NCBI GenBank assembly: GCA_000004695.1 | Contig: CM000153.2 | Coordinates: forward strand, 1,824,001 to 1,888,000 | From: Dictyostelium discoideum | Taxonomy: Eukaryota | Direction: 5' to 3' | DNA length: 64,000 bases | Shown here: one piece after another, positions 55,566-64,000 of the stretch | Layout: the number at the start of each line of letters is the position of its first letter | Position numbering within the stretch: position 1 is the first letter of the stretch | Translations under genes and position numbers: made by a program | The notes under the pieces: model-generated | What the model was told of the DNA's origin: nothing | Seen by the model: the letters and a program-made list of their open reading frames with translations, nothing else | Database searches by the model: none

Positions 55566-55638
55566 GCTCGATTAGCTCAGTCGGCAGAGCGTGGTGCTAA
55601 TAACGCCACGGTCGCAGGTTCGATCCCTGCATCGAGCA
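55566..55638 (+). tRNA. tRNA-Ile (anticodon AAT/AAU), 73 nt, no intron
   Basis: Clean cloverleaf by hand. Acceptor stem GCTCGAT/ATCGAGC (7 bp). D-arm GCTC-AGTCGGCA-GAGC. Anticodon stem TGGTG/CGCCA with loop CTAATAA (anticodon AAT). Variable loop CGGTC. T-arm GCAGG-TTCGATC-CCTGC. Discriminator A. A-box and B-box (GGTTCGATCC) are present. Confidence 0.85.
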
Positions 55639-61252: not shown

Positions 61253-61440
61253 TTTTTTTTTTTTTATTTATTTTGTTTTGTTTTTTTTATTTTGTTTTAC
61301 TGACTTTTAACACAAAAAATAAAAAAAATTTTCACATTTTTTAATATTAAAAAAAAAAAAAAATTTCAAAAAAAAAAATAAAAAAAATAAAAAAAAAATA
61401 AAAAAAATAATTAAAACAGTTTTATTGATTGTAAATTGAT

Positions 61441-62948
61441 TTATTGTAATTCTTTTAATTCATGAAATTGAAAAATGAGGGATTCAACAAATTTATTTAT
61501 TGTTTGAATTATTTCCGGAGGTTGATTTTCTGGATTTTTACATTCTAATTCCATTTCATGATATTCACGGTGCAGAGAATATGAATTTAGTATTAAATCA
61601 AACAAACCACCTAATATAAATAATTTAGTATACGAGTGGGAAGAGCTACCTCTAATTGTAGCATAGTAACGTTTGTCTGTGATGTCTACAAGGTTGTACC
61701 AGAAAATATATTGATCATGAATCATTTGGGAACGATTCTGATGAGTACCAATAACTTTTATTTTTAAATCTTGTAGTTCCTTCTTGGAATAATTTTTGTT
61801 TTTATCATATATCCCACCATCTTGAGTGCTATCCAATGGTTCTAATATTTTTTTAATTTTGTCGTTTTTGTTAAGATTGTTGTTTTCTTTTTTGTATTTA
61901 TCATTATATATTTGAGCTATGTGTTCAGCTGATAATTTCTTCAACATTTGTTCGTTCCAAAAAGGACCACATGGTGGTTTTACAAAGTTAGTTTTATATT
62001 TGCCATTTAATATTTCCAATGTTGTCCCATGCAGTGTCTCACCAACAAAAATTAGTTCTAATTCTTTTTTTGAAAAACGAAATAAATTTCCAATAGTTGC
62101 AAATTGTTCTATATTTAGATTATTATTAATTTCCACATATGGGTTTGAATATCTTGAATATAGATTTGTTGCAATGCAATTGATATGACCAGCGGTATTT
62201 TTGGTATACTCGTACAATAGTCCTGTGCTTTCATCATAAAAAAGGAATGTTTTATGTATGGTTAATAAAGGTTTGACGAATATTTTAATTTCTTGAGGAA
62301 CAGTCACGCCACTCTTCCTTGTTGAGGATAAAATACGACATTTCAATTCATCTAAACATTCTTTATTATTTACTAATGCAAAGGCACTATCGCAACATAC
62401 GATTAAGTTATTCCTTGGATCCTCCCAATTATATTTTGAATGTAAATTATCCAAAAGGGTTTTTAATGAATTGAAAGGAGATTGACAGTTTTCTGGTGTT
62501 CTTGGACCATAACTAATTACATATGGACAATTACTAATATTCAATTTGGTTGTTAGACTATATGCTTCAATTCCGACTGAATGGGGTTTGCTATCATTAT
62601 TAATCAATATATGATCTTTAATAGCATCTTTCCCATAATATGCGTATATTGTTTCATCACAATTGAGAACGTTACCAATATTAATATATTTCAATGCACT
62701 GTTCATAAATATTTCACAATATTCTTCAAATCTATGACTTTTCATATCCAAAACATTATGTACTGCTGAATATCTATTGTGATCCATCATTTTTAAATTA
62801 ATTAATTCAGGTGGTATCTTATCATTGTTTTTATTTGAATAAATATTTTTTAAATAATCAGTTATAAATTTCCAGAATGTAATATCGGTTAAATCATTTA
62901 ATCTTGAAATATCCTTCCCTTTATCTAATTTTTTTCTCCCTCTCATGT
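61441..62948 (-). CDS. piggyBac-transposase-like (DDE_Tnp_1_7 family, PGBD-like) protein; main exon, with probable short 5' exons at ~63035-63167 and 63291-63382
   Basis: Main exon ORF 61441..62946 shows, by eye, piggyBac-type blocks: N-terminal …FWKFITDYL…; first acidic block LNCDETIYAYYGKDAIKDHILINNDSKPHSVGIEAY (DE…KGR..….KP.K.G.K pattern); second block LIVCCDSAFAL (D..F.S); and YDESTG… No C-terminal Cys-rich domain. The ATG at 62946 has a poor context (gacATG). Upstream, a well-contexted ATG at 63382 (aaaATGACAAAAAAA; MTKKSEKINKESNISKTIITNAQIDQKMRNE) is followed by a GTATGT donor, and an acceptor at 63168 opens an in-frame 44-codon segment (EAEKLFWIFNNKVRPINYSEIVENTTPRKSSINREKIESENNG). Joining to the main exon at AG|AC-ATG needs a weak GTCAGG donor (phase 1), so the 5' structure is tentative. 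Confidence 0.6.
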
Positions 62949-64000
62949 CTAAGATTTGTATTAATTAATGAAATTAAAAATTTTGATAAATCTTCATTTA
63001 ATAACAATTTAAAAAAAAATAATTCATTATAAACCTGACCATTATTTTCACTTTCAATCTTTTCTCTATTTATTGATGATTTTCTTGGTGTAGTGTTTTC
63101 AACAATTTCGCTATAATTAATTGGTCTAACTTTATTATTAAAAATCCAAAATAATTTTTCAGCTTCCCTTTTTTAAAAAAATAAAAAATAATACAACAAA
63201 TTATATAAAAAATTGAAAATGTTATTTAATGAAAAATAAATTTAATAATTATAAATTTTAAAAAACAAAAAAGATCACAAATTAACATACTCATTTCTCA
63301 TTTTTTGATCAATTTGGGCATTTGTAATTATTGTTTTTGAAATATTACTTTCTTTGTTTATTTTTTCTGATTTTTTTGTCATTTTATTTATAGAATGGTT
63401 AAATGTTCAATAAAAAAAAAAAAAAAAAAAAAAATACACACACTTTCATTTTAATATTTGTTTTCAAAAATAAATATCTGAATTTTTATTAATTTTTTTT
63501 TTTTTTTTTAATTTTTTAAGGCGTAAAAAAATGTGAAAAATTTTTTTATTTTTTGTGTTAAAAGTCAATAAAGAAAATTTAAATTTTCAATTAAAAAAAT
63601 AAAATAAAGTGTGATTGTAAAATAAAAATAAAAATCTCTTTTTGATTAGGAAAAAGGTAAATCACTTTTTTAATTTTTTATTTTTTTTTTTTTTATTTTT
63701 TATTAAATTCATAGGGAAAAAAAAAAAAAAAAAAAAAAGCAATCACTTTTATTAAAAAGATTTTTTTTTTTTTTTTTTTTTTTCTATCACCTTCATCCCA
63801 ACTTCCAAATTTTTTTTATTTTTTATTGTCACGTTTGGGTTCGTTTTTTTTTAATTTTTTACGGAAAATATTTTTTTCATTTTTTTTTTTTTTTTTTTTT
63901 TTGTCAATTTTCGCTCAATAAATTCTAAAATTTTTTTCATTTTTTTTTCAAACCAAATACCAACAAATTGTAAGTCTATATAATTTCAAATAATATTTTT

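Follow-up and report, generated by a model that had tools for sequence, protein, structure and literature searches.

The Dictyostelium discoideum gene sslA1 is carried by a recently mobile piggyBac-superfamily transposon with long terminal inverted repeats, an intron and no cysteine-rich domain

RESULTS

The sslA1 gene lies within an element bounded by terminal inverted repeats

We analysed a stretch of Dictyostelium discoideum DNA of 64,000 nucleotides (contig CM000153.2, positions 1,824,001 to 1,888,000; hereafter the window) and found that the gene sslA1, near its right end, lies within a 2,269-bp unit (61300–63568, minus strand, running from (C/T)TGAC to GTCAG) that is very probably one copy of a class II, cut-and-paste transposon, autonomous in type and belonging to the piggyBac superfamily, recently mobile, and not a domesticated host gene. 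The copy is complete and carries the sslA1 transposase gene between two terminal inverted repeats (TIRs) of 43 nt, namely TTGACTTTTAACACAAAAAATAAAAAAATTTTTCACATTTTTT at the 5′ end in gene orientation (63526–63568, minus strand) and CTGACTTTTAACACAAAAAATAAAAAAAATTTTCACATTTTTT at the 3′ end, read on the plus strand (61300–61342). The arms differ by two mismatches, one of which is the terminal T/C. Their local alignment score was 124, compared with 36 ± 6 for shuffled sequences, and the TIR pattern occurred twice in the 64-kb window, with zero occurrences expected, and nowhere else in it. An earlier reading of the DNA, made from the letters alone (the sequence-only reading), had seen no TIR flanking the gene, which the search of the flanks overturned. 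A TTAA also occurs 8–10 bp inside each TIR end; the idea that cleavage really takes place at this internal TTAA, as part of a palindromic target (TGACTTTTAAAAGTCA), was rejected, as no empty palindrome was found in the window or the loci. The outer TGACTT/AAGTCA segments belong to the TIR, because the empty alleles described below do not have them.

The 501-codon open reading frame (ORF) reported by the sequence-only reading on the minus strand (61441–62946) is present and is 100% identical to an annotated 575-aa D. discoideum protein. An exact-sequence look-up placed it in the protein cluster named 'Suppressor of smlA' in NCBI/UniProt, with SslA1 (SSLA1_DICDI) and SslA2. The adjoining esterase gene (61252–60053, minus strand, reconstructed with two introns) is AX4 XP_638581.1, the immediate neighbour of XP_638582, sslA1. 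Because both the ORF cluster and the esterase neighbour match, the window covers the sslA1 locus of AX4-type chromosome 4, and the window gene is D. discoideum sslA1.

Near-identical copies occupy unrelated loci

Six complete copies were recovered (the window copy, L004, L006, L012, L013 and L014), each 2,211–2,269 bp long, starting with (C/T)TGACTTTTAACAC and ending with GTGTTAAAAGTCAG. The similarity of the window element to six other copies at unrelated loci stops at the element ends, within 1–3 nt of the TIR termini, and the flanks of the six complete copies are unrelated to one another (~50% identity, the level of random AT-rich DNA). The window copy and L006, which lies on another chromosome of the same strain, show 0 substitutions in 2.27 kb and differ at three positions, all of them indels, while L012–L014, from a second strain (D. 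cf. discoideum), are 0–3 substitutions apart. The sequence-only reading had favoured a domesticated, PGBD5-like gene and had itself named multiple near-identical, TIR-bounded copies as evidence to the contrary, and such copies are what we found. Nor is the gene single-copy: through the paralogue loci we counted at least three copies in one strain and at least five in another, at positions that differ between strains. L012–L014 also have in common a TGT>TGA nonsense codon, although they occupy unrelated loci; a defective copy has therefore spread, presumably in trans.

The sharp ends and unrelated flanks on both sides argue against spread of the copies by segmental duplication or gene conversion in place of transposition, an explanation that we find hardly credible. 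It could draw on the occupied allele of the window, which is not a clean insertion, in that it lacks ~75 bp of the spacer that the empty alleles contain, and on an odd inverted partial end that abuts the 5′ TIR of L004. The TTAA or TAA at the junctions speaks for transposition instead. A segmental duplication that would have given sslA2 (L003) and the window a unique flank in common was considered and rejected, as the apparent shared flank came down to ~30 nt of low-complexity similarity.

Comparison between subfamilies gave dN/dS values of 0.15–0.22, compared with 1.06 for the decaying sslA2 copy; judged from the sequences, the pattern is that of a transposase lineage staying functional while individual copies decay. 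One copy, L006, retains an intact 605-aa ORF (its product is P0008). The identical copies, the insertion polymorphism described below and the intact P0008 ORF together suggest that the element may still be mobile today.

Empty sites and junctions point to insertion at TTAA

Three other strains, two of D. discoideum and one of D. cf. discoideum, have no insertion at the sslA1 locus (L007, L008 and L009). The spacer between the same two flanking genes measures ~1.08 kb and contains no gene in these three strains, versus 3.28 kb in the strain of the window, and the empty alleles are ~13% diverged. A second insertion is polymorphic too: L001, an older copy (81% identical), occupies a spacer of 2,925 bp whose orthologues in L010 and L011 measure 776 and 748 bp and are without the element. 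Here the empty allele reads ...AAAAT-TTAA-ATTTTCG..., with a single TTAA, and two TTAA, one at either end of the insert, are present in the occupied allele, a duplication that, from these alleles, reads as the piggyBac signature.

In the window copy, the 5′ junction trinucleotide is TTA on the gene strand (63569–63571), a candidate target-site duplication that is imperfect in this copy, and the 3′ junction trinucleotide is TAA on the gene strand (61297–61299). An exact TAA repeat brackets L006, L013 and L014; in L004, L012 and the window copy (TTA/TAA) the repeat has one mismatch. The 4 nt on the 5′ side read TTAA in three of the six complete copies (L006, L012 and L013), the first 3 nt after GTCAG are TAA in five of the six as well as in a seventh 3′ end, L002, and the empty alleles at the sslA1 locus read T-TAA-C at the matching point. 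Two explanations fit: the duplication made by the young subfamily could span 3 bp, or the terminal base at its 3′ end could stand in the position of the first TTAA base.

A 3-bp TAA repeat flanking the canonical copies, in place of a clean 4-bp TTAA, would also fit a TIR-bounded unit that another enzyme moves, such as a PIF/Harbinger-type DDE_Tnp_4 transposase (which makes 3-bp TAA/TTA duplications), with the piggyBac-like ORF as a passenger or dead relic; DDE_Tnp_4 genes do occur beside SslA copies or fused with them (the neighbour of L002; P0014 and P0012). We nevertheless consider such foreign mobilisation highly improbable. The SslA ORF is the only ORF of the unit, has an intact catalytic tetrad and is under purifying selection between subfamilies, and the fusion with DDE_Tnp_4 looks like a nested insertion merged by gene prediction. 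The TTAA in half of the 5′ flanks, at the junction of both empty sites and on both sides of the L001 insert likewise argues for a piggyBac-type enzyme.

SslA belongs to the piggyBac superfamily and lacks the cysteine-rich domain

Assignment to the piggyBac superfamily required more than a direct search. The sequence-only reading was right to call the gene piggyBac-like, but the DDE_Tnp_1_7 blocks that it named are invisible to standard searches: a Pfam hmmscan of the SslA protein at E ≤ 1 gave no match, PF13843 (DDE_Tnp_1_7) included, and single-sequence searches of SslA against NCBIfam, and with phmmer against all PDB sequences, found nothing, as did phmmer of the relative P0025 against PDB. 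The assignment needed a family profile, transitive Pfam matches and a predicted fold. An exhaustive HMMER search with a profile of five D. discoideum paralogues (A1) found 44 distant relatives, the closest of them in the dictyostelids Synstelium polycarpum and Tieghemostelium lacteum, the T. lacteum protein bearing the UniProt name of a piggyBac-derived-domain protein. In a 31-sequence family alignment (A2), 10 members matched PF13843 at E ≤ 0.01, and two relatives exceeded its gathering score of 22.4 bits (P0025 with 38.7 and P0023 with 27.1). The A2 profile matched the Trichoplusia ni piggyBac transposase (6x67/6x68) at E = 1.9e-9, and its alignment to 6x67 placed the NCDE block on piggyBac D268 and the Y..VD..D block on D447, the latter as a weak second domain. 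The link to PF13843 is thus transitive and by profile, not direct, since the SslA protein itself has no match at E ≤ 1.

The predicted structure shows the piggyBac transposase fold, with an RNase-H-like core and an insertion domain; an AF2 model from the shallow five-sequence alignment had a pLDDT of 31.8 and was of no use. The DE and CDSAF blocks named by the sequence-only reading are present, and their aspartates, D97 and D186 in ORF numbering, are invariant among the 31 sequences. The first, D201 of the 605-aa protein (NCDETIY, 62656–62658, minus strand), corresponds to piggyBac D268: it is invariant in A2 and in a core-region sub-profile (A3), aligns to LTIDEQ of 6x67 and lies in model strand beta-1. 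The second, D290 (VCCDSAF, 62389–62391, minus strand), is, together with the S at +1 and the F at +3, invariant in A2 and A3, and directly follows model strand E285–289 (beta-4); from its motif (DS.F compared with DNWF) and the predicted topology, we infer that it corresponds to piggyBac D346 (CDNWF). The third and fourth, D525 and D528 (VDITD, 61675–61686, minus strand), correspond to D447 and D450 of piggyBac (VDTLD). D525 is at least 90% conserved among the 31 sequences, aligns to GGVDTLDQ of 6x67 and starts helix 523–534 after the inserted domain, and D528 is present in the VDITD motif. The alignment to piggyBac, a check proposed by the sequence-only reading, thus covers D201 and D525. In the model, D201, D290 and D525 take positions consistent with the DDD arrangement of an RNase-H-like enzyme. 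On sequence grounds, SslA is a piggyBac-superfamily transposase that is presumably catalytically active.

The C-terminal cysteine-rich domain (CRD) is absent, as the sequence-only reading had noticed, with one Cys in the last 90 residues. That reading took the absence as a sign of exaptation. No Cys-rich tail was found among the ~40 relatives of the SslA clade, so the missing CRD is a trait of the clade and not a sign of exaptation.

Most of the distant relatives (P0025–P0064) are full-length proteins of ~560–590 aa on ~2-kb contigs of Logan, ENA and JGI assemblies that carry no taxonomic label. One relative cluster was found on at least 20 contigs, suggesting that the CRD-less clade is widespread in unidentified eukaryotes.

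The window copy is disabled by a frameshift

Exon 1 (63291–63382, minus strand, with its ATG at 63382) encodes MTKKSEKINKESNISKTIITNAQIDQKMRNE, a peptide conserved in the 81%-identical copy P0002. It is followed by intron 1 (63168–63290, minus strand), 123 nt long, 90.2% AT and bounded by GTATGT...AG, which is the only credible intron of the gene. Read unspliced, the exon-1 frame meets a stop five codons into the intron. The exon 1–exon 2 junction (...MRNE/EAEKL...) occurs in every annotated full-length model and is spanned by model helix 21–41 (pLDDT ~89). Exon 2 (61441–63167, minus strand) is ancestrally one long exon, here split by a frameshift into a 5′ part in the exon-1 frame and the 501-codon ORF. 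The cause is an A7 homopolymer (62929–62935, minus strand) where intact copies have A6; this +1 frameshift leads to a premature stop (62921–62923, minus strand) and a 112-aa product. A7 is a real allele and not a read error, because the independent assembly L005 also has it. Deletion of one A restores the 605-aa ORF, and the repaired product is identical to P0008, which in turn equals AX4 SslA1 (P0007) from the later start Met of the P0007 model onward. As the frameshift leaves a 112-aa N-terminal fragment, the window copy is non-autonomous, though an N-terminally truncated protein could conceivably be made from an internal ATG.

The sequence-only reading had placed two short exons and an upstream ATG before the 501-codon exon. 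The ATG and the GTATGT...AG intron (63290–63168) stood, and the second intron (~63038–62951) was rejected as an artefact of the frameshift. The segment in question (62951–63031, minus strand), 'intron 2' of the public model, codes for YNELFFFKLLLNEDLSKFLISLINTNL, a conserved piggyBac N-terminal motif that aligns to piggyBac YDPLLCFKLFFTDEIISEIVKWTNAEI in the profile alignment; P0002, P0007 and P0008 read straight through it, and the intron is an annotation patch over the A7-versus-A6 difference. The public model P0001 and the GenBank SslA1 entry P0015 bridge the frameshift with two different donors. More generally, the public models P0001, P0015 and P0002–P0005 show gene predictors and a GenBank submission patching frameshifts and deletions of decayed copies with invented introns, and P0002, P0004 and P0005 have similar in-frame gaps.

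Additional features of the element, its copies and its neighbourhood

The 5′ untranslated region (UTR) of the element contains, at window 63430–63443, a (GT)n/(AC)n microsatellite and a long poly-T run. Apart from the frameshift, these 5′ UTR repeats are all that distinguishes the window from its allele L005, which is shorter by five T, and from the copy L006, which is shorter by one GT unit.

The 5′ TIR of L004 (D. cf. discoideum, JBTAPH010000042.1) is directly adjoined by 19 nt of the element terminus in inverted orientation (L004:4800–4830). The junction, TTTTTTGTGTTAAAAGTCA-AT-TGACTTTTAACACAAAAAA, is a perfect palindrome and could be a hairpin-processing footprint or two ends joined head to tail.

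Gene prediction merged a DDE_Tnp_4 (PIF/Harbinger-type) ORF with an SslA copy in P0014 (ACTFIZ_004225, 833 aa) and P0012, where the SslA element seems to have inserted into that ORF after ...IIENVF. Another DDE_Tnp_4 gene (L002:8749–10045) lies 2 kb from the L002 copy. These neighbours indicate that transposons are nested in these genomes, which also contain a second and distinct family of DNA transposons.

The 90% protein cluster of the esterase has a 690-aa protein as its representative (exact look-up). A single tRNA-Ile (AAT) gene is located at 55566–55638 of the window, ~5.7 kb from the SslA element. Dictyostelium TRE retrotransposons target tRNA genes.

DISCUSSION

A probable cut-and-paste element described as a host gene

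The element consists of a single gene, with two exons separated by one 123-nt intron, between two 43-nt TIRs; the intact gene encodes a 605-aa DDD transposase with a piggyBac fold and no CRD. In the model that we propose by analogy with piggyBac, the intact copy on the other chromosome (L006/P0008) would make the transposase, which would bind the TIRs, excise the element and reinsert it at T-TAA/TTAA sites, and defective copies would be mobilised in trans. On this reading, the window copy is a very recent insertion upstream of the esterase gene on AX4-type chromosome 4 that has since acquired the +1 frameshift (A7).

Several observations weigh against this model. The 43-nt TIRs are outside the 12–19 nt usual for piggyBac-like elements, among which one 50-bp case is on record, and a spliceosomal intron such as intron 1 is unusual for an active element of the superfamily (PMC5381638). 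In nearly all copies, the 3′ junction is TAA after an invariant G, that is GTCAG-TAA and not GTCAG-TTAA, so the young copies show no clean 4-bp duplication. The occupied window allele is without the ~72–75 bp T-rich spacer (CAGATTTT...TTTT) that all three empty alleles contain between the left flank and the T-TAA-C site (window 61253–61299 and 63569–63650 compared with L007:5890–6000 and L008:5900–6000), which reflects either an insertion-linked deletion or a pre-existing allele difference. No excision footprint was seen. The HMMER alignment of A3 to piggyBac covered the first Asp block and gave no residue-level match for D346. Finally, a purely selfish element does not predict the genetic phenotype of Gao et al. 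2007, which, according to the title and the citing sentence in PMC4931340, is that SslA affects host development.

This phenotype is central to the alternative in which SslA is a domesticated (exapted) piggyBac-derived host gene that regulates aggregate size and whose TIRs are relics. The gene owes its name to a genetic screen, and its level reportedly responds to counting factor (title of Gao et al. 2007, in PMC4931340). The coding constraint (dN/dS 0.15–0.22) and the retention of all catalytic Asp residues can be accommodated by domestication, and the combination of an intron with no CRD recalls PGBD5 (PMC5381638). Yet an active transposase lineage would show such constraint between subfamilies just as well, and the missing CRD is clade-wide. 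The population data are harder to reconcile with a host gene, which would be fixed, syntenic, single-copy and TIR-less: three other strains (two of D. discoideum, one of D. cf. discoideum) are without an insertion at the locus, copy number and position vary between strains, TIRs are intact, and identical copies lie on different chromosomes. Nonsense and frameshift copies spread or persist, the window copy being itself frameshifted, and sslA1 is restricted to D. discoideum according to PMC4931340. Domestication therefore appears very unlikely, and the mobile element is the reading that we retain.

Implications

A named Dictyostelium 'developmental' gene pair, sslA1/sslA2, is thereby re-identified as the transposase of a mobile element: the SslA element, a piggyBac-superfamily transposon with long TIRs, an intron and no CRD, has recently been mobile in D. 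discoideum, and its gene has passed in the literature for a developmental gene of the host. The re-identification alters how the sslA knock-down phenotype, the 'paralogues' and the restricted phylogenetic distribution are read. Being a clear member of the piggyBac superfamily with near-identical copies and insertion polymorphism, the SslA element is a candidate for a cut-and-paste system native to a model organism. The sslA1 gene also illustrates concretely how an intron can be invented by gene prediction where a frameshift has to be bridged.

The selfish and the developmental roles may even coincide. It is a speculative and rather doubtful possibility that a non-domesticated, still-mobile SslA transposon encodes a protein altering host aggregate or group size via the counting-factor pathway, and that the CRD-less, long-TIR, intron-bearing clade is an undescribed piggyBac branch of dictyostelids and many unassigned eukaryotic contigs. 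If so, SslA presence/absence and copy-number variation among wild D. discoideum strains would contribute to variation in multicellular group size.

Comparison with known systems

A catalogue of D. discoideum DNA transposons, Tdd-4/5, DDT-A/B/S and thug-S/T, was reportedly compiled by Glockner et al. 2001. These elements share the host of the SslA element and are class II transposons with TIRs, and the SslA repeat may already be catalogued among them under another name, DDT or thug. Tdd-4/5 differ in having integrase-like (Ginger2) enzymes and 5-bp target-site duplications (PMC2836005). A 2017 review states that the transposases of D. discoideum DNA transposons have no resemblance to known transposases (PMC5633606). 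A 2017 survey of piggyBac elements had Entamoeba as the sole amoebozoan (PMC5381638), and a 2026 preprint states that piggyBac has not been reported in D. discoideum. The ORFs of catalogued transposons carry the tag '_TE' in dictyBase (PMC12405889); sslA1 has no such tag.

SslA1/SslA2 entered the literature as 'suppressor of smlA' (Gao et al. 2007, Eukaryot Cell 6:1538, as cited in PMC4931340). In PMC4931340, SslA is described as a 'novel protein', and sslA1 appears among the developmental genes as one that only D. discoideum has and whose function is unknown. SslA was nowhere called a transposase or transposon in the literature searched, which covered Gao et al. 2007 through its title and a citing sentence.

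The domesticated genes PGBD1–5, PiggyMac/TPB2 and Kobuta (PMC5381638) have the same superfamily origin as SslA; PGBD5 is also CRD-less with introns, and SslA, like them, has a reported host phenotype. They are, however, single-copy, syntenic, TIR-less and fixed across large clades, whereas SslA is multi-copy, TIR-bounded and presence/absence polymorphic within the species, with disabling mutations in many copies. Many but not all members of the superfamily have the CRD; PGBD1 and PGBD5 are without it (PMC5381638).

The closest mechanistic comparison is with piggyBac itself (IFP2, from T. ni) and piggyBat (Myotis lucifugus), represented by PDB entries 6x67/6x68 and 9c0f. In piggyBac, the CRD binds the transposon ends. 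SslA has the same catalytic aspartates as both, with the motifs DE...Y.G...KP..YG, DS.F/DNWF and Y..VD..D, and resides, as they do, in a single-gene, TIR-bounded element of ~2.3–2.5 kb with TTAA at insertion sites, as seen for the L001 copy. Unlike them, SslA has only 12–15% sequence identity, is undetected by the Pfam model, has no CRD and contains one spliceosomal intron; its TIRs are 43 nt versus 13 nt, and the duplication of its canonical copies reads TAA, with an invariant G before the 3′ copy. As the SslA clade has 43-nt TIRs and is without the end-binding CRD, its recognition of transposon ends must differ from that of piggyBac, which gives it mechanistic interest for the engineering of piggyBac-type tools.

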